Source: Candidatus Thorarchaeota archaeon
GTDB lineage: Archaea > Asgardarchaeota > Thorarchaeia > Thorarchaeales > Thorarchaeaceae
Reading direction: 5' to 3'
NCBI GenBank assembly: GCA_021498125.1
Contig: JAIZWL010000001.1
Location: 773,434-837,433 of the forward strand
DNA length: 64,000 bases
The notes beneath the pieces are model-generated. The model worked only from the letters and a program-made list of their open reading frames with translations. It searched no databases and had not been told where the DNA came from. Position 1 is the stretch's first letter, and the number at the start of each line of letters is the position of its first letter. Shown here in pieces: positions 5,170-36,821 of the stretch. The position numbers and the translations under genes are program-made.

Positions 5170-8100
5170 ATGCGACATGTTGTATCTTTACTGTTCATAT
5201 TATTATTATTTGCGATCCCCGCGCCTATAGCGGAGCAAACTAATGCGACCACCTCTGCATCTACTTATCAAACGCCGCCAGAGACAATTTCTTTGAACTT
5301 TCAGGCTCTTTCTTCGATCTATGGTGCTGACATTCCTGTCATGGTGTCATTCGTTGATGATGTGAGTGCTTCTGTAGTTGATCGGATTTTGGCGACAGGA
5401 GTCAGATTTAGCTTTGGTTCTCCTCAACTCAGTCATGTGAATGAGTTCTATTTGCTGCGAGGAAGTGCTTCGGCTCTTGAAACTCTCATGAACACGGGAT
5501 TGGTTCGGTCAATCGATGTTCAGTCTTCGATAAACTATCTCCAATCCACACGCGATGTTTCGATTCCTGAGATCAATGCTGATGATGCGTGGAATATGTT
5601 AGATGGACTTGGACGCAATCTCACAGGCCAAGATATCCTCATTGCAGACTTGGATACGGGAGTGGACTGGAAGCATCCCGATCTCTGGTTTCCCGGGGAT
5701 ACTGCATATTCATGGATCGATTCCACTTCTGACGGAAAGCCCTCCAATGGTAGTGATTATGTGGATCTCAATGGCGACTTTAGTGGGACTGCGGACGAGG
5801 TCCTGTACTATATTGATCTGGACTCTGATGGGACATACAATACGACCACCGACTGGCTGTGGGTAGACAACATCTCTCAGAATGCCGAACCAGACCCTGG
5901 TGAACCCTTCTTTGTGGTCAACGATACAAATGGAAACGATGCTCTTGATGTTGGCGAGACCCTTGTAATGTTGACGACCCCTAAGACGAAGTATATTGTT
6001 GAGAAAGACGGCACTCCCCAGGCCGATCTTCAGGTATGGGTAAGAGGGGTCAACCTGACGGCAAGTACACATCAGGACACCGATGGTCACGGAACGGCCG
6101 TTGCAGGAATTCTACTTGGTGGGCAGCTCAATTATCGCAAGTATGTGGGTGTCGCCCCTGACTCGGAGCTTATGATGGTTCGAGTGTTGGGAAGTAGTGG
6201 TACTGCTCTCTCTGTTGAAGAAGGTCTCACGTGGGCTTACAATCATGGTGCCGATGTGATTCTCACGGAGATCGGTTCATGGACTTACGAATATCTGGAT
6301 GGCAGCGATTCCGCCGAGACCCTGATCAATACGATCGTCTCCAATGGTGTGCCTGTCATCTCCCCAGCAGGTAACTTGGGCGGGAAGGACAAGCATGCGC
6401 TGTTCAATGTTACTGCGGACACGCAGCACCAGACTGATTTTACGATTCCTGCTCCGGATGGGACCTATGTTGTATATGATATTAATAACGTCTACATTAC
6501 AGTGCTCTCGATTAATAGTACAGACTTCTGGACATGTAATTTCAGTCTGATCATGAATCTCGCAGTTTGGGGTGGACCGCCAGCACTGACGACCTATCTT
6601 CATCCGGGAAATGGCTATCTGACCTTTAATGCCGAACCCGCTGTGGTATGGGGCGGTAATACTTTCACTATCGAGTCATTCATATCGAGTTCATCTCGGA
6701 ACACGCAGATGTTGGGGATTTGGATTCATGGGACGCTGCCTACGACTGGTTCCTCACCACCTTGGCATCAAGTCAATATTACAGCTCCCTCCAACATGAC
6801 CTTCCATGCATACATCTCCGACGATCAAAGCTCATGGTCGGGAGGCTGTATCTGGAAGAGCGATATGTCCAACGATTACGAGATCACATGGCCCTCCACC
6901 GCTGATGACGCACTCAGTGTCGCAAGTTATAGGACCCGAAATATTTTCGCTGGAAATTCTGTTGGCGATATTGCCAGTTTCTCATCACGTGGTCCACGAA
7001 TTGATGAAACCCAAAAATTAGGGGTTGCAGCCCCTGGAGGGTATGACATCATCTCAGACTATAGTAATGCCTCAGCTTGGCAGGCGTGGTTCAATGGAAA
7101 CGGGCAGCTTCCATTTGGGGCGGCCTTTGGAAGTTATAGGTTATTCAGTGGCACCAGTGCCTCAGGTCCTCATGTTGCTGGTTGTGCAGCCCTAATGTTA
7201 CAACGTGACTCCTCGAAAGGGTCGAGTGTCAAAGCACTGATTCAAAATAACGCTCGCTCGGACGGGTTTACTGGAACCGTACCAAATTCGATCTGGGGGT
7301 ATGGTAAACTCGATGTCCAAGCTGCAGTTGCGGCAATTGATGTGGCCTCTCCCACGATTCACTCTGTAGGGCTTACCCCCTCTGTTGTGGAGTACTACCA
7401 GACAGTAGAGTTTGAGGCGAATGTGACAGACGACTCTTCCGTGGATAGTGTCTATCTGAAGTATCAGACCAATGGATGGACCTCTCCGACGTGGGCCAAG
7501 ATGACCTTACAGGGAACTGGTAATTTTACAGTCACAGTTGGACCCTTTGTGTATAATTCCACAGTCTTCTATACTATCTATGCCAACGACACCTCGGGCA
7601 ATGATGCAGAATCCACAGTAGCTAATTTCATTGTTGGTGATTCCGTTGCACCCTCCTTTGCTAACTTTTGGAGATCGGCGGCAACTCCCGGTGCCGGGAA
7701 TCCCGTTGAGATCCGCGTGGATGTTGTCGAGCCATCAGGTGCCTCTGGTGTTGATACAGTACTACTAAACTGGTCTGCATCAGCTGGAGTCTGGACAATC
7801 ACGACCATGACTGCCACTACTGGAGATACCTATTCAGCGACGATATCGGGGCAATCTGAAGGAACTATTGTCTATTATTATTTCATTGCAAATGACACAG
7901 CAGGTAATCTCAATGCATCTACCATTATCAGCTATACCACGGTAGCCGCAGAGAGTGTTCCTCCCTCGATCAATAGTGTGACTCGTGATCCCGAGACCCC
8001 TGATAGTACACAGAGTGTGACGGTGACTGCGAATGTCACGGACAGTTCTGGAGTGGACATGGTAATTCTCGAGTACTACAATGGCTCTGCATGGATCAAT

Positions 8101-8433
8101 GTGACCATGACTCATGTGGGTGATTATTATGAGGCCACGATCCCTGCACTCCCCGAAGGGGCAACAGTGACCTATCGTGTACATGCACGTGATAATGTGG
8201 GTAATTGGGCGGTGAGCAGCGACTTCTCATATACTGTCACCGGTGGCACTACGACCACCACAACTACCACTACCACTACGACCACCACCACCACAACAAC
8301 AGCACCCACCACGACGACACCCACCTCTTCGACATTGCCTGACAAAGCGGATCCGCTGATACTGGGAGCCATGTTCGGGATCATTCTAATTCTGATCATT
8401 CTCTCGGTCAAGTGGTCCCGGCGTGAGCAATGA
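5170..8433 (+). CDS. Subtilisin-like serine protease (peptidase S8) with a poly-Thr stalk and a C-terminal TM anchor
   Basis: Catalytic Asp 'IADLDTGVDW', His 'DTDGHGTAVAGI' and Ser 'GTSASGPHVAGCAAL'. Signal peptide 'MRHVVSLLFILLLFAIPAPIA' at the ATG at 5170, preceded by GAGGAGG (the ORF alternatively opens at 5101). Ig-like repeat domains are followed by a T19 tract and the 'LILGAMFGIILILIILSVKWSRREQ' anchor. Confidence 0.9.
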   Translation: MRHVVSLLFILLLFAIPAPIAEQTNATTSASTYQTPPETISLNFQALSSIYGADIPVMVSFVDDVSASVVDRILATGVRFSFGSPQLSHVNEFYLLRGSASALETLMNTGLVRSIDVQSSINYLQSTRDVSIPEINADDAWNMLDGLGRNLTGQDILIADLDTGVDWKHPDLWFPGDTAYSWIDSTSDGKPSNGSDYVDLNGDFSGTADEVLYYIDLDSDGTYNTTTDWLWVDNISQNAEPDPGEPFFVVNDTNGNDALDVGETLVMLTTPKTKYIVEKDGTPQADLQVWVRGVNLTASTHQDTDGHGTAVAGILLGGQLNYRKYVGVAPDSELMMVRVLGSSGTALSVEEGLTWAYNHGADVILTEIGSWTYEYLDGSDSAETLINTIVSNGVPVISPAGNLGGKDKHALFNVTADTQHQTDFTIPAPDGTYVVYDINNVYITVLSINSTDFWTCNFSLIMNLAVWGGPPALTTYLHPGNGYLTFNAEPAVVWGGNTFTIESFISSSSRNTQMLGIWIHGTLPTTGSSPPWHQVNITAPSNMTFHAYISDDQSSWSGGCIWKSDMSNDYEITWPSTADDALSVASYRTRNIFAGNSVGDIASFSSRGPRIDETQKLGVAAPGGYDIISDYSNASAWQAWFNGNGQLPFGAAFGSYRLFSGTSASGPHVAGCAALMLQRDSSKGSSVKALIQNNARSDGFTGTVPNSIWGYGKLDVQAAVAAIDVASPTIHSVGLTPSVVEYYQTVEFEANVTDDSSVDSVYLKYQTNGWTSPTWAKMTLQGTGNFTVTVGPFVYNSTVFYTIYANDTSGNDAESTVANFIVGDSVAPSFANFWRSAATPGAGNPVEIRVDVVEPSGASGVDTVLLNWSASAGVWTITTMTATTGDTYSATISGQSEGTIVYYYFIANDTAGNLNASTIISYTTVAAESVPPSINSVTRDPETPDSTQSVTVTANVTDSSGVDMVILEYYNGSAWINVTMTHVGDYYEATIPALPEGATVTYRVHARDNVGNWAVSSDFSYTVTGGTTTTTTTTTTTTTTTTTTAPTTTTPTSSTLPDKADPLILGAMFGIILILIILSVKWSRREQ
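8248..8325 (+). repeat. Coding ACC/ACT/ACG microsatellite (poly-Thr linker) inside the S8 protease gene
   Basis: Run of (ACN)n codons encoding 'TTTTTTTTTTTTTTTTTTTAPTTTTPT'. Confidence 0.85.
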
Positions 8434-8520
8434 TTGGGGCCGGCCTCTCGCCGCCCCTCTCCATGCATCAGGAAATATGATAAATGGGGATTCGTTTCTC
8501 TCTAATCCGGGGAATATTCG

Positions 8521-8877: not shown

Positions 8878-8937
8878 AATTAGTGACTGAAAGAATGAGG
8901 GCCGGGAAGGCTCTCGCCTGTCCCGGTCAAGATCTGT

Positions 8938-10032
8938 TTACTGATTCTCTTCCTGAAACTCTTTGAGGAACTCGGCCAATAGCTTGACTCCCTCAAGGGT
9001 CATGGCGTTGTAGATGGATGCACGCATTCCTCCAACTGATCTGTGCCCCTTGAGACCAACAAGTCCACGCTTTGCCCCCTCTTCTGTGCACTTGAGCTCG
9101 AGCTCTTCAGTTTCGAGCCGGAATGTGACATTCATCAGAGACCGTGAGTCTTTCCGGGCATGGCCCTTGTAAAAACCATCCGAGTGGTCGATCACATCAT
9201 AGAGCAGTTTGGCCTTCTCACGATTGATCTTCTCAATCGCTGCCACCCCGCCGATCTCCTTCAGATACTCAAGTCCAAGCTTCGCCATGTAGATCGAGAA
9301 GACAGGAGGTGTGTTGAAGAGCGAGTCCTTTGCCGCGTGAGTGCTCCACTTCTGCATGGTCGGTGTGTTCTCTGGGACTCGGTCCAAGAGATCTTCCCGT
9401 ACGATGAGCAGTGTCACACCAGCCGGACCAAGGTTCTTTTGCGCACCTGCGTACATGACTGCGAACTTGTTAAAGTCGATGACCTTGTCCATGATATCCG
9501 AACTCAAGTCAACCACTAAGGGGATGTCATCTGGGACTTTGGGTATGTAATGCCACTCAGTACCGTACAGTGTGTTGTTGGAGGTGATGTGTGCATATGC
9601 AATATCATCACTGAATTCGATATTTTGCGGAACATACGAGAACTTATCATCCTCAGAAGATGCAACAACTCTCACATCCCCGTAGAGCTTGGCCTCTTTG
9701 ATCGCTTTCGTGGACCAGCCTCCTGTATTGACGTATTCCATAGGTTTGCCCGGAACTTGCAGGTTCAACGGGACCTGATAGAACTGTGTCGAAGCGCCAC
9801 CCTGAAGCCAGAGCACTTTGTAGTCATCGGAGAGCCTCATCAATTCTCGGACGAGATCCATTGCCTCATGATGTACCTTGTCATATTCCTTTGATCGGTG
9901 AGAGATCTCAAGAATTGACATTCCTGTTCCCTGAAAGTCCAACAGCTCTGCTTGTGCCTTTTCAAGAGCTGGCAGTGGTAGAGTTGCAGGGCCAGGGTAA
10001 AAATTGTAGACTCGATGGGTCATTTGATTCAC
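8938..10032 (-). CDS. serC: Phosphoserine aminotransferase (3-phosphoserine/phosphohydroxythreonine transaminase)
   Basis: N-terminal 'YNFYPGPATLPLPALEKAQAELLDF', PLP-fold AAT class V architecture, about 360 aa. Confidence 0.9.
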   Translation of the reverse strand: MNQMTHRVYNFYPGPATLPLPALEKAQAELLDFQGTGMSILEISHRSKEYDKVHHEAMDLVRELMRLSDDYKVLWLQGGASTQFYQVPLNLQVPGKPMEYVNTGGWSTKAIKEAKLYGDVRVVASSEDDKFSYVPQNIEFSDDIAYAHITSNNTLYGTEWHYIPKVPDDIPLVVDLSSDIMDKVIDFNKFAVMYAGAQKNLGPAGVTLLIVREDLLDRVPENTPTMQKWSTHAAKDSLFNTPPVFSIYMAKLGLEYLKEIGGVAAIEKINREKAKLLYDVIDHSDGFYKGHARKDSRSLMNVTFRLETEELELKCTEEGAKRGLVGLKGHRSVGGMRASIYNAMTLEGVKLLAEFLKEFQEENQ

Positions 10033-10035
10033 CTA

Positions 10036-11367
10036 TTAAGTTAGTTTGTTGATCGTGAAACCTGTCCATATTTTTGGTTGGAAAAAGGTGCTCTTCTGCG
10101 GCATGACCTCGAAATTCTTGGACACCGCTTCAACCTCTTCCACCCGAGTTGGGTTCATAAAGAAGACGGCCTGTGCGCCATTCTTGACCGACTTTATTGC
10201 CTCGTCAACTGCATCACCTATGCCCTTGATGTATACGACAAAGCCTCCCCCCTTCATGGTCCCCTGCGCAAGTTTCTCTTTGTTGATCCCAAGAATCTTG
10301 TCGAGGATCAGAGTATGGAGGATTGATACATCTAGTTGACGAAGTTCTTTTGACTTATCAGGAAGCATCTCATCCATGATCTTGGCATCCTTGAGGGTCA
10401 ATGCATAGAATTTGCCATCATTCATGTACAGACCAAATGCATGGGCGCCCTCCTTGAATTGCTTGTCCATTAGTGTGAACATGTCCTCGCGCTTGTCGAA
10501 GACCTGAACGTCAAAGTGTGTCTTGATCCCTTCCAGTAATTTCTCTCTTGAGAAGTCATCAAGGTTCTGTACTAGTCTGTGAGTTGGAAGCACTACCAAT
10601 CCGGGATTTGAGATATTGACGAAGGTCATCATTCGGTATTTTGCGCTCTCGAGTTCGGGATGTTCCTTTGAGAGTGCAAGTGCAGTCTTGTAACGGTGAT
10701 GACCATCTGCAATGATGACATATTTGTCCGCCATCAGCTCTGAGATCTTGGCCGTGTCCGATTTGTCATCAATCTTCCAGATCCTGTGTCTGACTCCTTC
10801 GTAGTCGGTCACATCCGCGATGGGCTCGTTCTTCATTGCTTTCTGTAGTATGTTGTCAACATTGCCCTCATGGTCTGGATAGATCACAAAGATCTGACCA
10901 AACTGCGCCATGCATGCGCGACTGAGATTGAGGCGGTCCTGAATGTCCTTTGGAAGGGTCTCTTCATGTTGAAGGACTCCTGCAAATTTCCCAGAACTGG
11001 GAGCCTCTTTGGCAAAATCCTCAAGTCGGATCAGGCCAATGAAACCAAACCTGAAGAGTCTCTGACCGTAGACCTCAAAGTCTTGACCGTACACGTAGAA
11101 GCTCTCATTGTCATCTTGAACGAGGATGTTATCTTTGATCCATTCATTGAGTAGGTCACGTGCTCGCGTGTACTGGTTGTTGGATTCAGTATCGCTATCC
11201 TGAGGTTTGTTCCGTATGATCCAAGCAATATTGTATTCCGACATCGACTGGAGTCTATCGATTTTCTCTCCCTTGATGATGTCGTAAGGCGGGGACACAA
11301 GGTTTGACAGGTCACCTGCCTTTGCAACATTATACCGGTAAGCCTTGAAAGGAATAACGCGCACCAT
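10036..11367 (-). CDS. DUF1015-family protein
   Basis: N-terminal 'VIPFKAYRYNVAKAGDLSNLVSPPYDII' is the hallmark DUF1015 opening. The gene ends 3 nt upstream of serC on the same strand. Confidence 0.75.
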   Translation of the reverse strand: MVRVIPFKAYRYNVAKAGDLSNLVSPPYDIIKGEKIDRLQSMSEYNIAWIIRNKPQDSDTESNNQYTRARDLLNEWIKDNILVQDDNESFYVYGQDFEVYGQRLFRFGFIGLIRLEDFAKEAPSSGKFAGVLQHEETLPKDIQDRLNLSRACMAQFGQIFVIYPDHEGNVDNILQKAMKNEPIADVTDYEGVRHRIWKIDDKSDTAKISELMADKYVIIADGHHRYKTALALSKEHPELESAKYRMMTFVNISNPGLVVLPTHRLVQNLDDFSREKLLEGIKTHFDVQVFDKREDMFTLMDKQFKEGAHAFGLYMNDGKFYALTLKDAKIMDEMLPDKSKELRQLDVSILHTLILDKILGINKEKLAQGTMKGGGFVVYIKGIGDAVDEAIKSVKNGAQAVFFMNPTRVEEVEAVSKNFEVMPQKSTFFQPKIWTGFTINKLT

Positions 11368-21180: not shown

Positions 21181-21191
21181 GAGGGACTGAT

Positions 21192-22553: not shown

Positions 22554-22560
22554 ACTCACT

Positions 22561-22596: not shown

Positions 22597-22702
22597 CAAG
22601 CAAAAGCATATCTGTGATAGTATGCTGCTGAATTGTTGTACTTGAATGCGGTGATGAACACTGACGCGCGTCTACTCTCTGGTCATACTCACACTACTCT
22701 CT

Positions 22703-25856: not shown

Positions 25857-27140
25857 ATGAAGCTCGTGATTGTTGGATATGGGCCCGGTGGTGTGGCTGC
25901 AGCAGTGGCCGCTAAGATATCCGCCCCTGAGACTGAGGTAACTATTCTCACTAAAGAAACACTTCCAGCTCATAGAAGACCTGGCGTGACCATGGCATTT
26001 AGATCAATAACAGCCGGAGACCTCACAATATCTGAGTGGTCTCCCAAGGCTCTATCCAAGAAAGGGATCAATCTCACGCAAGGCGTCACCGTTGTTGGAG
26101 GTGATGTTTCCCGAAAGGCTCTCTCTGTTAAAGATGCCAAGGGTGAGAGCCAGATCAGGTACGATAAATTGATTCTTGCGACTGGTGGCCGCCCTGTCAT
26201 TCCACAGATTCCAGGGGCCGATTTGAAGGGAGTCTTCACCGTTCAAGATTTGGCCGATGCTCAGAATGTGGCTAAAGCACTTGAAGACGCAAATTCTGTT
26301 ATCATTGTCGGTGCCGGGTTTAGCGGATTAGAAGCTGCAGAACAAATCTTAGCGCTTGGTAAGGAAGTCCATCTGATTGTCAGATCACGTCTGCTGCGAC
26401 GACTGCTTGAACCCAGTATGAGCGATGAACTTGTTAAACGATTACCATCACGGCTTCATGTACATATTGGCAAGAGTCCGGATCGGGTGCTTGGCACCAC
26501 TTGTGTTGCTGGTCTTTCTCTCGGGGATGATAAAATCGATGCGGACATGGTTCTCTTCATGACTGGTGTTCGCCCTGAGACCAGTCTTGCTGAGAGTCTG
26601 GGACTCAAGATCGGTGATCTTGGCGGGATCGTGGTCAACGAACTCATGGAGACCTCAGTTCCAGAGGTATATGCTGTAGGGGACTGTATCGAGTCGCGTG
26701 ATTTTCTCACCGGTAAACCAATTCTCCTTCCCGTGGGCAGTGCGGCAGCTCGGGCCGGGCGTCAGGCTGGAATGGCCGCAATTGGTCGTGACAAGGTGTA
26801 TCCGGAAGTGACTCTCCGTTTTCAGTATGACCACATCTTCTCTACTGAGATAGTGACCGTCGGATCTTCCACAACACAGGCTTCAGACTATGGGCTTGAG
26901 ACCCTTGTCGAGACCATGTATGATCCTGCCGAGTTTACGCACGTGGCCATTATCACTGACAAACAGCATCGGATCATAGGCGGGCAGGTCTTATCTGCCA
27001 GAATGGCCTCTCCTATAGGCTACCAGCTTCTCAGACGGGTGGAAGAGGGTGCCACGTTGGATGCGCAGCCCCTCACCAAGTTCAGGCATGAGGCATTCAG
27101 GGCTGCATTGGAAGAGGCCCTTGGCCCGATCAATCCCTGA
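25857..27140 (+). CDS. FAD/NAD(P)-dependent pyridine-nucleotide-disulfide-family oxidoreductase
   Basis: Two Rossmann GxGxxG motifs ('IVGYGPGGVAAA', 'IIVGAGFSGLEAA') and 'ILATGGRP'. No N-terminal redox Cys is evident. Confidence 0.8.
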   Translation: MKLVIVGYGPGGVAAAVAAKISAPETEVTILTKETLPAHRRPGVTMAFRSITAGDLTISEWSPKALSKKGINLTQGVTVVGGDVSRKALSVKDAKGESQIRYDKLILATGGRPVIPQIPGADLKGVFTVQDLADAQNVAKALEDANSVIIVGAGFSGLEAAEQILALGKEVHLIVRSRLLRRLLEPSMSDELVKRLPSRLHVHIGKSPDRVLGTTCVAGLSLGDDKIDADMVLFMTGVRPETSLAESLGLKIGDLGGIVVNELMETSVPEVYAVGDCIESRDFLTGKPILLPVGSAAARAGRQAGMAAIGRDKVYPEVTLRFQYDHIFSTEIVTVGSSTTQASDYGLETLVETMYDPAEFTHVAIITDKQHRIIGGQVLSARMASPIGYQLLRRVEEGATLDAQPLTKFRHEAFRAALEEALGPINP

Positions 27141-30032
27141 TCACACGATATCTGGTGGATTGCCTCTATCCTCGACTGGGATCTCCCATTCGTTTTGTTG
27201 GGACATCCGGCGTCTACCTCTTCCTTTTCCATACTTGATGAATGCCACATAACACAGACCGACCACGACTATGATCAGTAGGCCCGTGGTCACTGATGTG
27301 ATAAATACGTCATCCGCTGCTTGAACTTGGATAAGAATGGTCTTTTCGTAGACACGTAGGTGACCAGTTGAGTCATATGCCTGTACATAGATGTGATAGA
27401 ATCCGCCCATGTCAATGACAAAGCTCGTTGCAAATTTATACCCTAATGACTCGATGACATCACTTGTCACGTTTGTACCATCTGGCTTTTCAATGTGGAC
27501 GGCCACGGATTGTAAGTCCTCATCAAAGATATATACGGTAAGGTTCGCGGTATCGCCGATTCTGCCTGCTTCAAAATCCACTCCATAGATCCGCGGAGAA
27601 ACGGGGATAATGGACTGTGCAAGGTTGCGGACAAATTGTAGATTATCGGCATTCATTTCTGTAGCCTTATTGATGATGTCATCATACAGCGTCGAGCCAT
27701 CTGCAATGGCAACGACTCTTCCGCGTCCAACATTTACTTCGGCAATCAATGCATGAGTCTTTGCAGCATCTGTCCAGAGAAGGCCTCTCGCACCTGCAAC
27801 GGACGGATCAATACTTAGTGTTCCTCCATAGACGATGTAGAGGTTTCTGACATCATCAACGAGTGGATCGTTTTCTACAGCCCCGCCATAATCTGCTCCA
27901 TAGACAAGGCCCTCTCCACTAGGTCCCACACCAATACTGTTCTTCTCACACTGAATTCCATACGGTGCTAAGATCTTGTTGTAGTCCGCCATATTGTATG
28001 ATGCATTGTGATAGACGGGGTCATAGTATTCTGAGAGGATGAGTAGCGTTCCTCCATCTCTCACGTACTCATGTATTGCATTGATTTCGGAGTCGGTGTA
28101 ATCAAGTTCTGTGTCCATGATCATGAACGATTCCGAATTTGATAGATCGTCAGGTGTTAGGTGCGATGTAAGCCAGCTCTTCTCTAGGCGGTCTGTGATC
28201 ATGCCTGCCTCTCTCAATTCCTGTCCGAAATAGTTGTAGTACCTTGGGTCATCAGGATCGTCATCAGATTGGTGGAGCATATCGACCAGAAGGCGACCTC
28301 CGTAAGTAGTGATCGAGTACGAGATGTCTAACGACGCGATAATCTCAGTTCCTACAACTAGTGACAGATTTCCCGTATATGTGCCCACGGCAGAGAGCGG
28401 AAGATTGCCTGAGATGTTCATGCCAATGCTGAAGTACGAATATCCTGTCTGAACAGATACTATGTTCGTTGATACATTAACATAATTAGTTGCATTACCC
28501 GACATGACTATGTCTACTTTTCCACGGTTCACGGTCGATATGATCGTGACCTTCTGGTTGGGCCTGTCATCACCAACGATGAGCACAGAAGACCCCTCGG
28601 GAAGAGTAGGATATCTAAGAGGTGTCATTAGTGTGATTATTCGAGAGGTCTCATTGATCAGTGTGGCTGACCGATTTGCATTGACCAGCCCCATTCCTTG
28701 GGCCATTGCATCAAGGTCCAGATCTGTTGCGCCAGCCATCAAGAATGCTTTGACCGCCAGTGGCGATAAACCAGGATATTGCTGTACCAATATTGCTACT
28801 ACACCTGCTACTAATGGTGTGGCAACAGAAGTACCCGACCACATGGTGTAGTAGTTCCCAAATTGGGTTGAATTATAAATTATATATTCACTAGGATTTG
28901 CCCCCGACCATCTTCCTGAAACGACATTTTCGCCTGGGGCAATTACATCCGGTTTGACTACCCGCCCACGCGGATAATGGACGTTTCGCACTACTGGCCC
29001 ACGCGAGCTAAACTGTGCAATCGCATCTGCTCCGTTGGAGGCACCCACAGTAATGGCCTCTTCAGTGATTCCTGGTGCATTAATCGTTTCTGTTGCAGGT
29101 CCGGAATTACCTGCTGCTATGACTACAGCAACTCCGTTGCTAATCGCGGCCTTACTGGCCTCGACTGAGGGATCTGCGAACATACTATCGGTCCATAGGC
29201 CTCCAATGCTCATGCTGATGACATCAACGCCCTGGTCCACAGCAAATTCAATGCCTTGTGCAATAATCGAGTCGTCCGTTGTTCCTGATGAGTCAAGGAT
29301 CTTTACGATGAGTAGATCTGCTCCTGGGGCCATGCCACTGTAATTTCCAGTACCCATATTTGTACCAGCCGCAAGCCATGCAGTACCAGTACCATGACCA
29401 TTATCGTCGTATGAATTGATGCCGTCTGCGGGATTCATATCGTCGTGATTGTTCACAAAATCTTTGAATCCGATAATCTTCCCTGCGAGATCGGGGTGAC
29501 CGCCCCACGCCCCACTATCAAGAAGTGCAATGGTAGTCCCTGAGCCATTATATCCCTTTTCCCAGAGTGGATTAATATTGAGTATCTTGTCCGGATGGAC
29601 ATATCCACTGTTCGACTTAGCAGCAATGCCATCTACTGGATCCTCTGCAAGAAGACCTACCTTTATGTCGAGAGTGATGGCGTTCACATACCCTGAGACT
29701 GCGAGTCGTACGATTGCCTGATTGGTTGCATAGGCGGAAACCATTGGAATGAGATGGAACACATGTCGTATCTCCACTCCCTTTGTCTCATACTGTTCGA
29801 CTACTTGCTCCATGTATGAGGAAGGTGTTCCATCAGGAAACTGAAAGACTACAGGTATTCGCTGACTGGTGCATTGCTCTTTTATTGCATTTTGAAGCGA
29901 TGGCGCAATAATTGACGGAACACTGTTGTTTGTCTTGACCGAAATACCTGATACTAAGGCTGGTATTGGTATTAACATAATTGTAATCAACAAAGCTGCA
30001 ATGAATTTGGTTCGATATCTGATCGGCGTCAT
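27141..30032 (-). CDS. Subtilisin-like serine protease (S8) with a C-terminal TM anchor and a short cytoplasmic tail
   Basis: Asp 'IALLDSGAWGGHPDL', His 'DDNGHGTGTAWLAAG', Ser 'WSGTSVATPLVAGVVAIL'. Signal/TM 'FIAALLITIMLIPIPALVSG' after the Met at 30032 (the ORF extends to 30167). C-terminal 'LLIIVVVGLCYVAFIKYGKGRGRRR'. Confidence 0.9.
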   Translation of the reverse strand: MTPIRYRTKFIAALLITIMLIPIPALVSGISVKTNNSVPSIIAPSLQNAIKEQCTSQRIPVVFQFPDGTPSSYMEQVVEQYETKGVEIRHVFHLIPMVSAYATNQAIVRLAVSGYVNAITLDIKVGLLAEDPVDGIAAKSNSGYVHPDKILNINPLWEKGYNGSGTTIALLDSGAWGGHPDLAGKIIGFKDFVNNHDDMNPADGINSYDDNGHGTGTAWLAAGTNMGTGNYSGMAPGADLLIVKILDSSGTTDDSIIAQGIEFAVDQGVDVISMSIGGLWTDSMFADPSVEASKAAISNGVAVVIAAGNSGPATETINAPGITEEAITVGASNGADAIAQFSSRGPVVRNVHYPRGRVVKPDVIAPGENVVSGRWSGANPSEYIIYNSTQFGNYYTMWSGTSVATPLVAGVVAILVQQYPGLSPLAVKAFLMAGATDLDLDAMAQGMGLVNANRSATLINETSRIITLMTPLRYPTLPEGSSVLIVGDDRPNQKVTIISTVNRGKVDIVMSGNATNYVNVSTNIVSVQTGYSYFSIGMNISGNLPLSAVGTYTGNLSLVVGTEIIASLDISYSITTYGGRLLVDMLHQSDDDPDDPRYYNYFGQELREAGMITDRLEKSWLTSHLTPDDLSNSESFMIMDTELDYTDSEINAIHEYVRDGGTLLILSEYYDPVYHNASYNMADYNKILAPYGIQCEKNSIGVGPSGEGLVYGADYGGAVENDPLVDDVRNLYIVYGGTLSIDPSVAGARGLLWTDAAKTHALIAEVNVGRGRVVAIADGSTLYDDIINKATEMNADNLQFVRNLAQSIIPVSPRIYGVDFEAGRIGDTANLTVYIFDEDLQSVAVHIEKPDGTNVTSDVIESLGYKFATSFVIDMGGFYHIYVQAYDSTGHLRVYEKTILIQVQAADDVFITSVTTGLLIIVVVGLCYVAFIKYGKGRGRRRMSQQNEWEIPVEDRGNPPDIV

Positions 30033-30172
30033 TTCGTGGGGCCCTTCTACTGATGCGTTTATCAATCTGTAATTAAGCATTCCTTTGACTGCTGTTTTGA
30101 TACTCGGTCTCTCCGAGCAGTGAAGTCTTATTATTTGATTGTATATAGATATCTGAGTGCAATGCACATTGA

Positions 30173-30484
30173 GTGAAAAAGGAGTTTAATACGTTGGGAA
30201 CAAAACCACCTAATTACGAACGCAGGCTGCAGATCAAGCATTTCTTTGATGACCGTACTACTGGGCAGACTCGACGAACATGGCTCGAGATTCAGTTGCT
30301 CCCCCCGGAGAAGAGCCCTGAAGGCTGGGTCAATGAGGGAAAGGTCAGGCTCACATTGGGTGAGGACCGCGATATCAAGGGATCTTTTCTTCTATCGATA
30401 TCCGAGGCTGCTCGCCTGCAAAAGGCGCTTGATATGATAGTCGAAGATCATGAGCTTGATATGGCTCGATTATGGCGAGAGTGA
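30173..30484 (+). CDS. Small hypothetical protein, possibly a PC4/YdbC-like ssDNA-binding fold
   Basis: Weak resemblance to PC4 C-terminal domain spacing: 'WLEIQLLPPEKSPEGWVNEGKVRLTLGEDRDIKGSFLLSISEAARLQKAL'. Confidence 0.35.
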   Translation: MKKEFNTLGTKPPNYERRLQIKHFFDDRTTGQTRRTWLEIQLLPPEKSPEGWVNEGKVRLTLGEDRDIKGSFLLSISEAARLQKALDMIVEDHELDMARLWRE

Positions 30485-30662
30485 TCGAGTCTAGTGTGGC
30501 GGTTCTTCCATATCGATAGTATCGCCACAGGCCTCCATTCTTTTTTAAGACCTGATGCTCCTAATAGGGAGTGACAACAGATTTATTCCTCGCTTTACTA
30601 TAGTAGAAGCAATACGAGGAGGACTATCATTGGCTGGTCTTGAAAATGTACTTGGCTATGTG

Positions 30663-31745
30663 ATGAAGATTGACTTTCAATTTCCAATGAGTGATATTAT
30701 TGCAGTAGTGCCGTACGTGCTTCCTATGCTGTTCATTGGTGCAACGCTCTTGTTGTATCAGCGGCATCTTGTCCCCGAAGCAATGAGTCGGAATGCCATG
30801 GTCTTTGTTGGTGCACTCTGCTACATTCTATCGTTCTTATTGATTCTGTATGCCGGGTTTGGCTCTGTGTGGTGGGGCCCACCGGAACTCACGTTTGGCT
30901 CATGGGCAATCTTCATGGGATTACTTCAGGCAACAACCGATCTTATCTTTGGGTCTGTGCTTGGAAGTGTCAGCTACATCCTCCTCATAACGGTACTCTT
31001 TATCTTTCTCGCCAAATCCGTGATCGCCCCACCCAACCCTGACTTTGTTAAAATAAAGGCGGAGTTGCGTGCTGCCGAGGATAACGTCAAGACTCTGACT
31101 GGTGAGGTTCAAAAATTAGAGGGTGAGAAGAAGCAGCTTACCGAGTTCCTCTCCGATAAGGAGACGACCCTCACCCGTCTGGAGAGTGAACTGACCTCGT
31201 TGAAAGCGCAGGTCGCACAGATTGAGGAGGAAAAGGCAGTATTACAGGCCGATCTCGCAGCAGCAAAGGAATCTCCCACTGTCGATGCTGATGCGGAACA
31301 GGAACTTCTTGCAACTATATCGAAGAAAGATCAGACTATTACTCGGTTGCAGGCTGAGATTGAGGATCTACGCCGCCGTGCAGAATCTGCGGCCCCTGCA
31401 AAAAGCACTGACAAGCTAGCTAAGATCGAAGAGCAGCTAAAGTCATGTCAGGGTCGGATGGAGAGTCTCGCTCGAAGGTCTGAGACCGCATCTGAGGTGA
31501 TAGACAGTGTGATCTCGGATATGGCCGAACTTATTTCGGATATTGACTCCAGTGGTCTTGATCCTTCGGCAAAGATCGCTTTGTCATCTCTGCTTGAAGG
31601 CTTGGGCCGGGCTGTAGGAAAGATATCACGCCCCTCGGAAGCACCACCTGAAGAAGAACCTCGTGTAGAGCTCATCGGAGCTGTTATGATGGTTCATGAA
31701 GTGGTGGATGCTGTAAAGCGTCTTGCACGCAGTGCTTCCTCATAG
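30663..31745 (+). CDS. Membrane protein (4 TM) with a long cytoplasmic coiled-coil domain
   Basis: N-terminal TM helices followed by about 200 aa of heptad-rich sequence ('LRAAEDNVKTLTGEVQKLEGEKKQLTEFLSDKETTLTRLESELTSLKAQVAQIEEEKAVLQ'). The ORF table opens at 30555. Confidence 0.55.
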   Translation: MKIDFQFPMSDIIAVVPYVLPMLFIGATLLLYQRHLVPEAMSRNAMVFVGALCYILSFLLILYAGFGSVWWGPPELTFGSWAIFMGLLQATTDLIFGSVLGSVSYILLITVLFIFLAKSVIAPPNPDFVKIKAELRAAEDNVKTLTGEVQKLEGEKKQLTEFLSDKETTLTRLESELTSLKAQVAQIEEEKAVLQADLAAAKESPTVDADAEQELLATISKKDQTITRLQAEIEDLRRRAESAAPAKSTDKLAKIEEQLKSCQGRMESLARRSETASEVIDSVISDMAELISDIDSSGLDPSAKIALSSLLEGLGRAVGKISRPSEAPPEEEPRVELIGAVMMVHEVVDAVKRLARSASS

Positions 31746-31766
31746 TTGCTTCTCTATGGACGATCC

Positions 31767-31815
31767 GAGAGAGGTCAATGATGGCCTCTCTCTCTTAACT
31801 TCTTTCGATTTTTAC
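31767..31815 (+). terminator. Hairpin (GAGAGAGG-tcaatgatgg-CCTCTCTC) followed by a T-rich tract
   Basis: Perfect 8-bp inverted repeat 22 nt after the stop codon, followed by 'ttaacttctttcgattttta'. Confidence 0.55.
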
Positions 31816-32069
31816 TAAAACAATCATTATTAGTCTTCAATTGTCAAAAGTTTATCTTACAAGATGTGAGTCGTAATGCTTAATAGTCACCGACGCGCCA
31901 AAATATTTAATCACACCGGATACCAGAGAACGCGAACAGAGGAGATAAATCCCGAAGAACCTTGAGGAGGGTTCTCGGGGTATTTTGGAGGTTCATTTAC
32001 GGCGTAGTGTGCACGCTACGTGCCACGCGCAAGTTCTCGGTGTTCAATTATGTGAGGAGAACGAAAAAA

Positions 32070-35000
32070 ATGAGCTATAAACGAACTGCAGCAGTTCTGT
32101 TGTTTATTGCGGCGTTGAGTCTGACAATGTTTGTCACGCCCGCGACACGCGTTAATACGGCAGAACCCGCTAGCGCTCCAACGCTCAGCCCAGAGGCCAA
32201 GGAGCAGCTGCAGCAATGGTATCAAGACGTTGCGCAGCCAGGCTACCAGGCCAAGGTCGATCCAGCATTGGCCGAGTGGGTTGAAACCGGAGTGCTTAGC
32301 GAAAAAGTCGTCAAGACCGCAGACGGCGGAGTCAGTGCGTTGCTTGTCTTAGCCCCATGGGCTGATGAAGCAAAGCTTGCTGACTTAGTTGAGGTGCAGT
32401 GGAAGGCTGATCTGAAGTACTTTAAAGTATGGCAGGTCACATTCTCAAGCACCAGCACAGTTTCTGCCGTTGCAGCTGTTAGTGGTGTCGGTTCTATTGA
32501 AGCCGACCAGTACAAGCTGAACATGGCTGACGACCTTCAGAAACATATCGCTACTCCAAGCACTCCTGAGCAAGGCGTGGATATCTATCATATCCGCCAA
32601 GTTGTCGGTGCTGAGACCGCTCCTGCCTCAAGTTACAATGGCACTGGAGTATACGTTGGTCAAGTTGACACTGGTGCGGACTTTGGTAACCCTGATCTTC
32701 AGGGCGCCTATGGTGCAGCCTATGACCCATCCGGTTATGGTCTAGTACCTACATTCTACCACGCTAACTCAACCCCAGTCAATGTAACAGAGTGGTCTGC
32801 CAGTCCATACAACCTTTTGACCTATGAGGGTTCAGATGGTAACATCTACCTTGATGTCAGCGGTTGGGACCCATTGCTCAATTATGAGGGCGGTGGACGA
32901 TACCTGATTGGTGATGGTGACGAAAATGCACCATACCACAAGAGGGTCGGCTTCATCTGGCTGTACGCTTACTACTGGGGCATTGAGGGTGCCGGTAATC
33001 TGATCAATAACTATCTCTGGAAAGACTGGTGTCTGCCAGACCCATCAAATGTATACGGAAATTACTCTGTTAACTTCGTCATGCAGCAGAGATGGGCTCC
33101 CTACGCCAAGATCTTCGCTCCAGCTCTTGTGATCAACAGTACCGCTGACAAGCAGTACCATCTCATCATCAACTGGGAGGACACAATGGGTTGGAACAAG
33201 CTCTGGACCGCAGGGTTCTACTACGAGTCTATTGATCTAACAAACATTCTTGATGCATACGATGTCATCAAAGAGTTCGACTGGAACTTCACCGATGATT
33301 TCGTAGAAGAAACATTCTCAAAGGCTAACCGGATTGTCGCACACGACTATGATGGAGACAGCATTGATGACTTCAGTCTTGGTGCGCTCTGTTATGTCTA
33401 CGACGCCGGTGAGTGGTTCGATACTGAACCCTACTTTGACGCATTCCGAGCCGACGGAGATGCATTTGCACTCTACTATGATGCTGGTACTCACGGTACC
33501 GCTACTGCATCTCAGGTCGCAGGACAAGGCGTCCTAACTTACAAGAACACTGATACAGGCGCAACCTTCAAGATGACTGGTGTTGCACCTGGTGCGAAGA
33601 TCTACTCAGTCCGCGGTCTCACAAGCGGTTCCGTCTTTGGCGGTTTCCTCTGGGCCTGTGGATTTGACTTGAATGCAACATCTGGTGAATTCGAGTACAC
33701 AGGGCATCACCTCTCCAATCTCGTTACAAACTCTTGGGGTTGGGTCGCTGACGCCACTAGTGAATTCAGTTACATGTCCATGACTTGGACAATCCTTTCA
33801 GTACCAAACCTACTTGATTCAACCTACCCTGGTGTCCTGCACGTATTCTCAGCAGGAAATGAGGGTGCTGGTTACATGACCGTTGCGGCTCCAGGTTGTG
33901 CATCTGGTGTCCTAACTGTAGGTGCATCTACAACAAGCCACTGGCTCGAGTACCTCTACGGACCTACTCAGCCATACGAGGGTATTGCATCATTCACCAG
34001 TAAGGGTCCCGATTTCTCCGGATATCCCAAGCCTGATGTGCTTGCACCGGGTCTTGCAGGATACGCAGCAGTCCCATGGTATAATCAGTTCATGGGTGCA
34101 TATTGGGGCAGCCACACCGATGAGTACACAGTCTTTGCTGGTACCAGTCAGGCCGCACCTGTTGCAGCTGGTGTTGCAGCTCTGTTGTTCGATGCTGCCA
34201 ACAACGCACTGACCTCATTCCAGGCAAAGATCATCCTGCAGCAGACGGCTGTTGATCTCGGCTATGATCCTGCTACTCAGGGCTTTGGTCGTATTGATGC
34301 AGCACGTGCAGTTGACTTCTATGTCAATAATGTTGGTAGAGTATCAGCCAACCTTGATTCTGCCGCAAATATTGCAAAGATTCTCCAAGATGCATGGAAG
34401 GCTGGAGGTATACTCCCCTCATCCCTTCTTGGTACATCTGTGAACACGAGCGCTGTAGCCTTCCCAGATAGTTATATGGAGGGATCGTTGTTCTTTGGCA
34501 ATGTTTGGCCGGGTACAACCTCTACAATCTATCAGTCCATAATGGACAATTCATCCGCCCTTGATAATTCTGGGTGGAGCTATAGCTATCAGCACTTCGT
34601 TAAGGCGGAGACCTTCCAGTTTACTGGTACGACTTTCGCCTATGTTGACGCCAATGTGTCTGGTGACTATGCCTATGGTTATTTCAACCTCCGCGAGGAG
34701 CTTGGTCATGCTACCTATGACAGCAACATGTCCACATACAAGTACGTCACAATTGGTGTGGCGTTCGCAGGAGATGCTGCTACTGGTGGTGAATACCCAT
34801 GGATGTTCCTCTATGACTGGGAGGACACCAATGTCACCGATGGTTATCCGAACCTCTGGAACGGAACCGATGGTAACGAGCTCCATAGGCTGACCAGTGC
34901 TAGTAATCCAAGCAACACGAACTTCATGTCGTTTGCCGATGCAACCAGCGATCTGGCTTCAGTGCTATCGGGTAACATGACAATGGTCATTCATGACCCA

Positions 35001-36821
35001 GTCTTTGATGTCAACGCAACTTATGTCAATGTCAGCGCACCTGGGCACGATTTCGTTGCTACTGTGACGTTCTGGAAAGTCACCGATCCTGGTGTCCTTT
35101 CTGCCGCCGCAGGTGGAACGACCAACACAGTGAACTTCACGTTGACTGTACCGGCCAATGCAGAAGCAGGCATCCACACGGGCTACGTCATTGCTACTAA
35201 GGGTAGCACTGTTATCAAGTTGCCATTCAGCTACAATGTAGTTGCTAACCTTAGTGCTGATGTCACCACGCCAACAACCGTTGTTGATGGCTTCGGAAGT
35301 GAGTTGACGCCATACGATGCGCCGCTCTACTGTTTAGCCTCGGATTCGAGCACGGCAGACTTCAGATCGTACTTGGTCTACAACCCACACAATGCCTCAT
35401 ACATGGGCGTTCGTGCTATCTGGGATGAACCAGGTTCTCAGATGTTTGTCGAGATCCTTGACCACAGTGGTAGCATCCTAGCTTCTGGTGGTGCCTCAAC
35501 TGCTACAACAACAGCCGTGATTGCTAACTTGGGTTCTTCACCCGTCGGCTACTACTACATCTTTGTCTACGCTGTAGCACTGAACGGAACTACATTCCTG
35601 CCAGTCAACTACACGCTAGAGGCAATCATGTACGAGAGCCTCACTGGTGGAGCAAACGATGTCATCTTGACCTACACGGCCAATGATGTCACGACTCCTG
35701 TTGCTATCCATGATGGCGACACAATCGTTGGTGATCATGCGGTCGTCAACGCTACGTATCCGAAATTCAACCTACCGAACATGCCTGAGTATGAGGTCGA
35801 TTACACGAAGATCTCATTCTTGTCTGGTGTCTTCTATCAACACACTGGTAATCTTGTGATTCCAAGTAGCTCCTACAATCCATTCTCTGGTACTATTGAT
35901 CTTACTCAGTTCGCGTGGGAGCGTGTTGATGGCATCAAGGCTGGAGACAATGTTGATGTCAAGGTCGACTTCACCAATGGCGACTGTGACATCATGATGT
36001 GGTGGGCAGATACCGACAATAGCAGCTGGTCATACGCCAACAACCTGATGGCTGATAAGATGGCTACTGGTAACAAGCCTGAGCATGGTTCGTTCACTGC
36101 GGACCGCGACGGTTCTATCATGATTGGTATCTTCGACTATGACCTCTCTGCTGGTCAGTACACAGTGACCGTTGACACCCGTGTTGGTGTGTCCAACCAA
36201 GCTTTGGGTGCAACTGTGACCTTTGACTCCTACTCGTTCCTCAAGAACGGTAGCTTCCAGGTCCAGATTCTTGCGACCACTATGACCAACATTAACTTCG
36301 AGGTCAACTTGGCCGAGCTCACCTTCCAGAACTTCTTCAGTCCAGATGTGACCAACGTGCAGATTTCCAAGTCTGGTAACGTGGTGACTATCACTTGGAC
36401 CGCAACAGACAGGAACGCAGGTGACGATCTCTACTTCGACATTTTGATGAGCCCTGACAGTGGCCTGACATGGCAGTACCTTGCTGTCAACCAGACAGGC
36501 AACTCTTACGTCTGGGACTCCTCGTCGTTCCTTGCACTCGACACCTACATGATCAGGGTTGATGTCTATGACAACGATCCGGTACAGAACCCAACTGTCG
36601 GACCTGGTGACTACTGGATGGGCCTGACTGACACCGCATACTCCTCAGTATTCTCTGCAGGAGCGGTGACAACAACACCCACTCCAACCACCTCCACAAC
36701 TACAACCGCAACTCCACCTGGTCCGGGACTTACGATCGACCCACTCATTATCGGTCTGATCGGCGGTATCGGCGTTGGTGTTGTGATCATCCTGATCTTG
36801 TTCCTAGTGAAGAAGAAGTAG
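32070..36821 (+). CDS. Very large subtilisin-like serine protease (S8, about 1580 aa) with a Thr/Pro stalk and a C-terminal TM anchor
   Basis: Asp 'VGQVDTGADFGNPDL', His 'YYDAGTHGTATASQVAG', Ser 'FAGTSQAAPVAAGVAALL'. Signal peptide 'MSYKRTAAVLLFIAALSLTMFV' at the ATG at 32070 (GAGGAG upstream). C-terminal 'TTTPTPTTSTTTTATPPGPGLTIDPLIIGLIGGIGVGVVIILILFLVKKK'. Confidence 0.9.
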   Translation: MSYKRTAAVLLFIAALSLTMFVTPATRVNTAEPASAPTLSPEAKEQLQQWYQDVAQPGYQAKVDPALAEWVETGVLSEKVVKTADGGVSALLVLAPWADEAKLADLVEVQWKADLKYFKVWQVTFSSTSTVSAVAAVSGVGSIEADQYKLNMADDLQKHIATPSTPEQGVDIYHIRQVVGAETAPASSYNGTGVYVGQVDTGADFGNPDLQGAYGAAYDPSGYGLVPTFYHANSTPVNVTEWSASPYNLLTYEGSDGNIYLDVSGWDPLLNYEGGGRYLIGDGDENAPYHKRVGFIWLYAYYWGIEGAGNLINNYLWKDWCLPDPSNVYGNYSVNFVMQQRWAPYAKIFAPALVINSTADKQYHLIINWEDTMGWNKLWTAGFYYESIDLTNILDAYDVIKEFDWNFTDDFVEETFSKANRIVAHDYDGDSIDDFSLGALCYVYDAGEWFDTEPYFDAFRADGDAFALYYDAGTHGTATASQVAGQGVLTYKNTDTGATFKMTGVAPGAKIYSVRGLTSGSVFGGFLWACGFDLNATSGEFEYTGHHLSNLVTNSWGWVADATSEFSYMSMTWTILSVPNLLDSTYPGVLHVFSAGNEGAGYMTVAAPGCASGVLTVGASTTSHWLEYLYGPTQPYEGIASFTSKGPDFSGYPKPDVLAPGLAGYAAVPWYNQFMGAYWGSHTDEYTVFAGTSQAAPVAAGVAALLFDAANNALTSFQAKIILQQTAVDLGYDPATQGFGRIDAARAVDFYVNNVGRVSANLDSAANIAKILQDAWKAGGILPSSLLGTSVNTSAVAFPDSYMEGSLFFGNVWPGTTSTIYQSIMDNSSALDNSGWSYSYQHFVKAETFQFTGTTFAYVDANVSGDYAYGYFNLREELGHATYDSNMSTYKYVTIGVAFAGDAATGGEYPWMFLYDWEDTNVTDGYPNLWNGTDGNELHRLTSASNPSNTNFMSFADATSDLASVLSGNMTMVIHDPVFDVNATYVNVSAPGHDFVATVTFWKVTDPGVLSAAAGGTTNTVNFTLTVPANAEAGIHTGYVIATKGSTVIKLPFSYNVVANLSADVTTPTTVVDGFGSELTPYDAPLYCLASDSSTADFRSYLVYNPHNASYMGVRAIWDEPGSQMFVEILDHSGSILASGGASTATTTAVIANLGSSPVGYYYIFVYAVALNGTTFLPVNYTLEAIMYESLTGGANDVILTYTANDVTTPVAIHDGDTIVGDHAVVNATYPKFNLPNMPEYEVDYTKISFLSGVFYQHTGNLVIPSSSYNPFSGTIDLTQFAWERVDGIKAGDNVDVKVDFTNGDCDIMMWWADTDNSSWSYANNLMADKMATGNKPEHGSFTADRDGSIMIGIFDYDLSAGQYTVTVDTRVGVSNQALGATVTFDSYSFLKNGSFQVQILATTMTNINFEVNLAELTFQNFFSPDVTNVQISKSGNVVTITWTATDRNAGDDLYFDILMSPDSGLTWQYLAVNQTGNSYVWDSSSFLALDTYMIRVDVYDNDPVQNPTVGPGDYWMGLTDTAYSSVFSAGAVTTTPTPTTSTTTTATPPGPGLTIDPLIIGLIGGIGVGVVIILILFLVKKK

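Follow-up and report, generated by a model that had tools for sequence, protein, structure and literature searches.

Why does a Thorarchaeota genome carry four very large subtilases within 32 kb? The window analysed here, a 64,000-nucleotide stretch of a Candidatus Thorarchaeota archaeon (assembly GCA_021498125.1, contig JAIZWL010000001.1), contains four open reading frames for peptidases of family S8, which we label P1 to P4 and place by whole-window numbering. P1 (5170-8433, + strand; full frame 5101-8433) is a pre-pro-subtilase of 1087 aa from its likely start, P2 (22703-25834, +) a subtilase of 1041-1043 aa, depending on whether GTG 22703 or ATG 22709 is taken as the start, P3 (27141-30032, − strand; full frame 27141-30167) a site-1-protease-like subtilase of 963 aa, and P4 (32070-36821, +; full frame 31962-36821) a subtilase of 1583 aa from its likely start. 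We find this four-gene S8 neighbourhood to be an ancient, class-wide feature of Thorarchaeota. Beyond that, we consider it probable that the four are ancient paralogous, membrane-tethered pre-pro-subtilases inherited as a cluster, with P1, P2 and P4 acting as surface proteinases for peptide scavenging and P3 as an enzyme of the processing type.

How widely is the arrangement shared? Scanning the GTDB species representatives with a profile of the P3 post-catalytic region returned 56 loci, one per species and nearly all named Thorarchaeota, in which the neighbours were counted by tblastn; shortfalls in these counts are mostly loci that end at contig ends. P2 adjoins P3 in 43 of the 56 (identity of 35% or more across no less than half of P2), a pyridine nucleotide-disulphide oxidoreductase (Pyr_redox; 25857-27140, +; 427 aa, Pfam Pyr_redox_2 4e-53) lies between the two in 49, and a P4-like S8 gene of 4.6-4.8 kb fills the P4 slot in 32; three S8 genes are present in 32/56. 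In the window, the oxidoreductase gene follows P2 on that gene's strand at a distance of 23 nt and meets P3 stop to stop. Immediately upstream of P2, also on its strand, stands a TldD/PmbA metallopeptidase pair (19780-22553, +), found at 24-26 of the 56 loci where the flank reaches. On the other side, a gene for a 96-aa protein (30194-30484, +) diverges from P3 and recurs at 43/56 loci with 53-81% identity, and between it and P4 lies a gene for a 371-aa coiled-coil membrane protein (30630-31745, +; transmembrane (TM) with a long coiled coil; 40/56 loci). The whole order—TPR gene, two TldD/PmbA genes, P2, Pyr_redox, P3 on the opposite strand, 96-aa gene, coiled-coil gene, P4, 2-hydroxyacid dehydrogenase—is kept in a 62%-identical and an 84%-identical relative and, with P4 missing, in the closed genome CP070761.1. 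A single 37.6-kb contig of a relative of about 50% identity (GCA_900174565.1) bears members of all four families, next to the neighbours known from the window.

Individual searches gave a matching picture. The best 120 matches of P3 are all full-length, at 45-84% identity, with source names that are overwhelmingly Thorarchaeota; P1 had 229 matches, the named ones again nearly all Thorarchaeota. For P4 a word-indexed search yielded 26, but the idea of a rare family was dropped, as this number marks the limit of the word index and tblastn places a P4-like gene in the 32 loci given above. Since the clustering is conserved across species, it is not a matter of chance, and conserved orthologous groups in a syntenic block imply that the density of S8 genes is inherited and class-wide instead of recently expanded. 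The lineage-specific expansion proposed in the initial annotation consequently survives solely at the level of the class; for this particular genome it does not hold, with orthologues and synteny being Thorarchaeota-wide.

Membership of all four in family S8 is clear. Peptidase_S8 (PF00082) bit scores for P1 to P4 are 131, 139, 192 and 124 against a Pfam cut-off of 21.8 (E 7e-38, 2.5e-40, 1.8e-56 and 7.9e-36), and the family assignment and sizes given earlier (about 1090, 1040, 960 and 1580 aa) agree with this. The DTG/DSG, HGT, GN and GTS motifs occur in canonical order in each protein and align to subtilisin and Tk-SP, the catalytic sets being D162, H307, N402 and S663 (P1), D155, H293, N385 and S598 (P2), D172, H213, N309 and S402 (P3), and D200, H475, N597 and S693 (P4); the triads described as intact are indeed in place and not misaligned. 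Across alignments of 33 P3 and 32 P1 orthologues the catalytic residues are invariant. P1 and P2 share 27% identity across 686 aa, both catalytic-domain insertions included, while in the remaining pairs identity of about 30% is confined to portions of the catalytic core. These low values bear out the description of the four as strongly diverged, old paralogues without recent duplication.

The spacing of the catalytic residues sets three of the enzymes apart from the textbook subtilase. In subtilisin BPN′, 32 aa separate Asp from His and 66 aa separate Asn from Ser; the corresponding distances in P1, P2 and P4 are 145, 138 and 275 aa, and 261, 213 and 96 aa. Big insertions in the catalytic domain together with a long C-terminal extension are the pyrolysin-type feature in the grouping of Siezen and Leunissen, and P1, P2 and P4 all display it. 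A reading of the long Asp-to-His insertions as tripeptidyl-peptidase II-like was discarded, as no such enzyme came up when the PDB was searched with P1 and P4.

Where in the cell would these proteins reside? A hydropathy scan finds a C-terminal hydrophobic segment of at least 19 residues followed by basic residues in P1, P2, P3 and P4, in keeping with the anchor proposed before, and clear signal-like N-terminal h-regions in P1, P3 and P4. The secretion signal that had been ascribed to all four thus holds for three of them, P2 having no canonical signal peptide. The two proteins said to carry Thr/Pro-rich linkers proved to be P1 and P4, the linker lying directly before the C-terminal hydrophobic segment in each. 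P4 ends with the linker, then PGPGLTIDPLIIG, the TM helix and KKK, and in P2 a TM helix at about aa 1018-1037 is followed by KLYKMRTPP. Judged from sequence and models, P1 to P4 are predicted to be catalytically intact, exported and membrane-tethered, with type-I topology. Each would be made with an N-terminal Sec-type signal and a propeptide of the I9/Tk-SP type—the propeptide fold is present in the AlphaFold2 (AF2) models of P1 and P3—then exported and tethered at the outer face of the cytoplasmic membrane: one TM helix at the C-terminus would span the membrane and leave a short basic tail in the cytoplasm. No signal for sortase-type processing is evident. LPXTG is absent from the tails of P1-P4, where one non-significant match to an LPXTG-protein tail model was seen (E 0.049), and no archaeosortase was found among the open reading frames scanned in the window and up to 10 kb of flanking DNA. 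A PGF-CTERM or other archaeosortase signal was likewise set aside: the tails of P1-P4 and of one P4 orthologue matched no NCBIfam/TIGRFAM CTERM model at E up to 10. The P4 orthologue in one relative (locus L002) reads ...PPGFAIDPLLIG... (PPGF-AIDPLLIG before the helix) where the window P4 reads PGPGL, and on account of this PGF-like stretch a divergent sorting signal is possible.

The missing signal of P2 deserves a closer description. From its first canonical start (either of the two codons named above), the protein has only a short, uncharged hydrophobic N-terminus, and its orthologues possess normal signal peptides. The start region (22646-22702, +) reads ATG CGG TGA TGA and continues, in the P2 frame, with 15 codons that correspond to the ancestral signal-peptide h-region; ATG 22646 is homologous to the start codon of a P2 orthologue. 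The identical ATG CGG TGA TGA arrangement occurs in an independent metagenome-assembled genome (MAG; GCA_054386855.1, locus L065; ~84% identity by the P3 orthologue), which differs from the window in the supposedly untranslated codons by three synonymous and two conservative changes. Because the differences are mostly of these kinds, the h-region stretch looks translated despite the two in-frame TGA codons, and initiation at a non-AUG codon, read-through of the stops or truncation of the signal could lie behind it. An assembly error was rejected as the cause, given that the Logan assembly of SRR15988961 and the independent MAG carry the same sequence. Global recoding of UGA is incompatible with TGA serving as the ordinary stop of 11 of 35 window genes, and selenocysteine was dismissed in view of there being no selenocysteine insertion sequence (SECIS) or other Rfam match; no tRNA or Rfam features were found in the window. 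As a separate observation, the P2 slot of one Thorarchaeota species (locus L052, 12869-18630) spans ~5.8 kb with twice the usual tblastn score and looks like a tandem duplication of P2.

The fold of P1 relates this protein to a known class of surface enzymes. Its AF2 model (pLDDT 80.8) comprises, after a signal at about aa 1-22, an alpha/beta propeptide (aa 44-117) and an S8 core (aa 130-723) that is interrupted twice: aa 173-291, between Asp and His, form a beta-rich insert containing DxDxDG-like motifs, and aa 409-551, between Asn and Ser, a jelly-roll-like beta-sandwich. The chain then runs through three FN3-like domains (aa 729-1024) and a disordered Thr-rich linker (aa 1027-1062) to a TM helix (aa 1062-1086) and an SRREQ tail. 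The best Foldseek match is Clostridium CspB (4i0w, TMt 0.74), followed by the streptococcal C5a peptidases ScpA/ScpB and SpyCEP and then by FN3 tandems. P1—and P2 by homology—is accordingly built like ScpA/ScpB, SpyCEP, lactocepin and CspB, all large surface-tethered S8 enzymes with insertions in the catalytic fold and an FN3-type stalk, and with CspB it shares the core with a jelly-roll insert. It departs from the Gram-positive cell-envelope proteinases in its anchor, which is a TM helix with a basic tail in place of LPXTG and sortase, in the lack of a detected PA domain, with an Asn-Ser insert that is CspB-like, in the extra Asp-His insert with its DxDxDG-like motifs, and in the Thr-rich linker, which is typical of archaeal surface glycoproteins. 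Among archaeal enzymes, pyrolysin of Pyrococcus furiosus and STABLE of Staphylothermus marinus, envelope-associated S8 proteins of more than 1000 aa, may be similar cases. Both have large catalytic-domain insertions and long C-terminal extensions and come from hyperthermophilic Euryarchaeota or Crenarchaeota, and STABLE is bound to the tetrabrachion stalk without a TM-helix anchor of its own.

P2 has the two catalytic-domain insertions of P1 and, by homology, a P1-like layout; in P4 the Asp-to-His insert measures about 240 aa. The initial annotation had assigned beta-sandwich stalks to all four proteins and proposed a Pfam scan for PA, PKD and CARDB domains. Stalks of this kind are borne out by the model of P1, with its three FN3-like domains, and in part for P3, whose stalk includes an alpha/beta GIFT domain; by Pfam, no PA, PKD or CARDB domain was detected in the window proteins. 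The MAGs that contain homologues of P4 are Thorarchaeota or bear the label 'Lokiarchaeota', and in some of these homologues SBP_bac_5 is fused to the protease. Five relatives of P4, four of them ~2560-2600 aa long (proteins P0137, P0138, P0140 and P0141) and one of 1627 aa (P0142), have such a family-5 extracellular solute-binding domain of the Opp/Dpp type; in P0137 and P0140, the two that were scanned, it precedes the S8 domain, and additional PKD/Big_3 domains follow at the C-terminus.

P3 is built on another plan. A signal (aa 1-33) and a Tk-SP-type propeptide (aa 40-126) precede, in the AF2 model (pLDDT 80.8), an S8 domain (aa 150-465, nt 28638-29585, −), a P-like beta-sandwich (aa 480-575, nt 28308-28595, −), a GIFT/GATase1-like alpha/beta domain (aa 578-810, nt 27603-28301, −), an Ig-like sandwich (aa 814-901) and a TM helix (aa 908-934). 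The remaining 29 aa (nt 27144-27230, −) form a basic cytoplasmic tail, which in the Thorarchaeota orthologues has a basic cluster and the conserved end EWE.P......PP(S/D)I(E/V), with Pro960 and Ile962 invariant in 33/33. Pro-domain, S8, P-like beta-sandwich, GIFT, TM helix and basic tail in this order is the arrangement of the site-1 protease (S1P) family. In S1P itself, pro-domains are followed by S8 (187-478), P-like (479-616) and GIFT (617-998) domains, a TM helix and a basic tail, and the GIFT subdomain is found in S1P alone among the proprotein convertases, according to the cryo-EM study of the enzyme (PMC11231238).

The neighbours of P3 may be relevant here. Neither the 96-aa protein nor the coiled-coil protein has an informative Pfam match (the former has none at all), and the two may act together as partners or substrates of P3. 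The 96-aa protein is more conserved across species than P3.

Which enzyme is P3 closest to? By sequence the answer is Tk-SP of Thermococcus kodakarensis (PDB 3AFG), with E 2.7e-56 for the single sequence and 5.7e-82 for a profile, against 5e-37 for S1P; the alignment takes in the ProN region of Tk-SP. By structure it is S1P: Foldseek against the PDB ranks the human S1P ectodomain first (9csd_A, E 1.8e-38, 767 aligned columns) and a further S1P chain, 8uw8_A, third, with Tk-SP below the top S1P match, while identity is 19% and the global TM-scores are 0.39 and 0.48. For hhalign we used a human S1P sequence validated residue by residue against chain 8uw8_A. P3 137-673 and S1P 166-730 form a single collinear alignment of 491 columns that runs from S8 through the P-like domain into GIFT, and the post-catalytic part of P3 alone matches S1P with 89% probability (E 2.3e-6). 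A profile of this part matches only IFT52, S1P and a 'putative cytoplasmic protein', 2gk3 (E 0.64), in the PDB. Within the GIFT domain, all Pfam matches of the P3 orthologues are below threshold: ABC_transp_aux and DUF4350 in 33/33 each, IFT52_GIFT in 22/33 and MBTPS1_4th in 14/33. Compared with S1P (MBTPS1/SKI-1; 8UW8, 9CSD), P3 thus shares signal peptide, inhibitory pro-domain, S8, P-like and GIFT domains, a single TM helix, a basic tail and a similar length (963 aa vs 1052 aa). It differs in having an extra Ig-like domain before the TM helix and a catalytic domain nearer to Tk-SP, and in its predicted place at the cell surface, S1P residing in the Golgi lumen; S1P moreover has SPRING as a partner and SREBP and ATF6 as substrates, for which no counterpart is known in P3. 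Biochemically, S1P is characterised by cleavage after RX(hydrophobic)X motifs, by autocatalytic removal of its pro-domain in two steps and by its activation through SPRING. With Tk-SP, P3 has in common the N-propeptide, the S8 domain and a beta-jelly-roll after it (TMt 0.70), whereas Tk-SP is a secreted soluble enzyme without GIFT domain, Ig-like domain, TM anchor or cytoplasmic tail.

The architecture of P3 extends well beyond Thorarchaeota. An exhaustive profile search of 1.84 billion representative proteins gave 934 matches, and among the best 150 of these, 43 have an S8 domain N-terminal to the P-like and GIFT module. Clusters of the S8-GIFT type with source names belong to Thor-, Heimdall-, Loki/Prometheo-, Odin-, Baldr-, Hel-, Ran- and Asgardarchaeia, with one exception: cluster P0339, from Bathyarchaeia/Thermoproteota, on account of which we gave up the notion that the combination is strictly Asgard. 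The neighbourhood of a Heimdall P3-like gene consists of ribosomal and RNA-modification genes and has no synteny in common with Thorarchaeota. Many of the longer S8-P-like-GIFT proteins, 1220-1415 aa in length and from other Asgard classes (proteins P0290, P0295, P0303, P0306, P0308, P0309, P0330, P0342, P0364 and P0407; Odin, Baldr, Prometheo and Ran among those named), end after the TM helix in a cytoplasmic zinc ribbon, CPxCG...CxxCG. Such a tail hints at a connection of the protease outside with an effector inside and suggests transmembrane signalling.

Could P3 then be an archaeal forerunner or sister of S1P, cleaving membrane-tethered proteins site-specifically on the outside as the first step of regulated proteolysis or signalling? 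We regard this as a tentative possibility, somewhat short of an even chance. The lead of S1P among Foldseek matches over ~760 columns, the collinear hhalign alignment with its post-catalytic E of 2.3e-6, and a post-catalytic profile that finds, apart from the unnamed 2gk3, only the GIFT proteins IFT52 and S1P all speak for it, as do the recurrence of the architecture from Heimdall- and Loki/Prometheo- to Odin-, Baldr-, Hel-, Ran- and Asgardarchaeia and the zinc-ribbon tails on many members. With S1P as the query, some Asgard members score 110-120 bits against ~100 bits for the best non-self PDB proteins, which are subtilisins—a suggestive but not decisive margin. One survey had assumed a eukaryotic origin of S1P/SBT7 (PMC6713707), and in the literature searched no paper connects S1P with Asgard archaea. 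Yet the catalytic domain of P3 is nearer in sequence to Tk-SP than to S1P (E 6e-82 vs 5e-37), S1P is absent from the top 60 PDB matches of a Heimdall member, for which Tk-SP and subtilisins rank higher, the global TM-scores are modest, one S8-GIFT cluster is bathyarchaeal, and the generic GIFT/GATase1-like Pfam models (33/33) fit at least as well as the S1P-specific one (14/33), all sub-threshold; S8 and GIFT domains may also have been fused separately. The further proposal, that the proteases of the P3 family in Asgard archaea and some Bathyarchaeia are homologous to S1P over the whole ectodomain and that eukaryotes received this architecture from their archaeal ancestor, where it already processed surface or membrane proteins, is one towards which we lean a little less than away. 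On this proposal the enzyme would be coupled to the zinc-ribbon tail in many Asgard lineages and, in Thorarchaeota, linked to the 96-aa and coiled-coil proteins. Descent of S1P from the P3 family is not proven.

What, then, might the four enzymes do? P1, P2 and P4 would correspond, in archaea, to the cell-envelope proteinases: beta-rich insertions enlarge the catalytic domain, and beta-sandwich domains such as those in the P1 model would hold it off the membrane, with a presumably glycosylated Thr/Pro-rich spacer in P1 and P4. At the surface they would cut environmental proteins into peptides that are then imported and fermented. Generation of peptides for uptake at the cell surface is the most likely role of these three, because P1 has the build of a cell-envelope proteinase, relatives of P4 are fused to Opp-type binding proteins, and Asgard archaea, Thorarchaeota included, express extracellular peptidases, ABC transporters and genes of amino-acid catabolism (10.1101/858530). 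P3 shares the domain order of S1P, and for this reason a site-specific processing protease for surface or membrane proteins appears more likely than a bulk degrader. The extracellular protein degradation that the initial annotation assumed is therefore plausible, in line with the published view of Asgard archaea and the P4-relative fusions, but not uniform, given the S1P-like P3. Several points weigh against the scavenging scheme. Nutritional exoenzymes tend to vary in copy number, and single-copy conservation in fixed synteny with housekeeping genes is arguably commoner for cell-biological roles. The window holds no peptide ABC transporter, its transporters being of the MFS, CLC and P-type ATPase kinds. 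Export of P2 is uncertain, since no canonical start precedes its signal sequence. The predicted topologies derive from a hydropathy scan and AF2 models, and the C-terminal ~400 aa of P2, the C-terminal ~780 aa of P4 and the P4 insert have no Pfam match at E up to 1.

Some of these points would be accounted for if all four were proteases of envelope biogenesis or maturation whose targets for processing or shedding are surface proteins of the cell itself, for example S-layer-like proteins, adhesins or parts of protrusions. Such a role would explain why each gene is kept in one copy, is conserved universally and shares synteny with housekeeping genes: there is one P3 orthologue per species locus in 56 Thorarchaeota species, and the block of P2, Pyr_redox, P3, 96-aa and coiled-coil genes is rigidly conserved. 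The resemblance of P3 to S1P, a processing enzyme, and the conserved motif in its cytoplasmic tail point the same way. P1, however, resembles cell-envelope proteinases of broad specificity, an oligopeptide-binding protein is fused to P4 relatives, Asgard archaea are inferred to be peptide fermenters with expressed extracellular peptidases, and no candidate substrate has emerged so far, so that we judge this explanation unlikely, though the most serious competitor for the set as a whole. Far less probable is that some of the four are catalytically dead pseudo-proteases acting as adhesins or receptors, like CspC in Clostridioides. The CspB-like fold of P1 and weak NCBIfam matches of P1 and P2 to CspC/CspBA models hint at it, but those scores are far under the cut-offs, and the Asp, His, Asn and Ser motifs kept in all four and invariant across the P1 and P3 orthologues argue that these are not pseudo-proteases. 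That the genes were duplicated locally in recent times, or that ordinary secreted subtilisins lie together here by chance, has nothing in its favour except the physical proximity of the four genes; against the deep divergence of the paralogues (27% identity even between P1 and P2), the orthologues that each has in other species at 45-88% identity and an arrangement conserved across 56 species loci, we count it as refuted.

Returning to scavenging by P1, P2 and P4 beside a processing P3, an archaeon that ferments peptides and degrades proteins at its surface fits what is already accepted for Asgard archaea, and this part may reasonably be called ordinary. What goes beyond it are the class-wide four-gene neighbourhood and the presence therein of one member of a largely Asgard family with the full S1P domain architecture. 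Ecologically, the scheme adds detail to the view that Thorarchaeota live partly on detrital protein, and a fixed, class-wide set of four surface-tethered subtilases offers possible markers and targets for expression studies. S1P is central to regulated proteolysis in eukaryotes, where it takes part in activating SREBP and ATF6 and in directing enzymes to lysosomes. If the Asgard S8-P-like-GIFT-TM proteins are its relatives, S1P would join the eukaryotic signature proteins with Asgard antecedents, and the role of an S1P-type enzyme in a cell without a Golgi would become directly testable. This link is a lead that deserves a phylogenetic and structural test.

The remainder of the window shows archaeal markers (TopoVI A and B, an aEF1A-like GTPase) and, between 37 and 64 kb, no S8 gene among the 20 open reading frames scanned, eight shorter ones lying outside the scan. 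Nearby catabolic genes had been cited as consistent with extracellular degradation, and these do exist: besides the TldD/PmbA pair there are a 2-hydroxyacid dehydrogenase (36962-37954), an M24 peptidase (47535-48653) and Hbd (53320-54201). The link is weak, though, with M24 and Hbd 10-17 kb off amid housekeeping genes (Hsp70/DnaJ, P-type ATPase, TopoVI). Directly downstream of P1 stands a pair of genes for a class-V aminotransferase and a DUF1015 protein (8938-11367, −), which recurs in a ~52%-identical relative (locus L006, 4584-7040); in both, it is followed in the same order by genes for a prenyl-cyclase-repeat protein, MGMT and two proteins without Pfam matches. Finally, TopoVI subunit A (59923-62166, +; 747 aa) has its TP6A_N and Toprim domains only at aa 464-741, and the N-terminal ~450 aa contain helix-hairpin-helix motifs, an unusual extension for Top6A.

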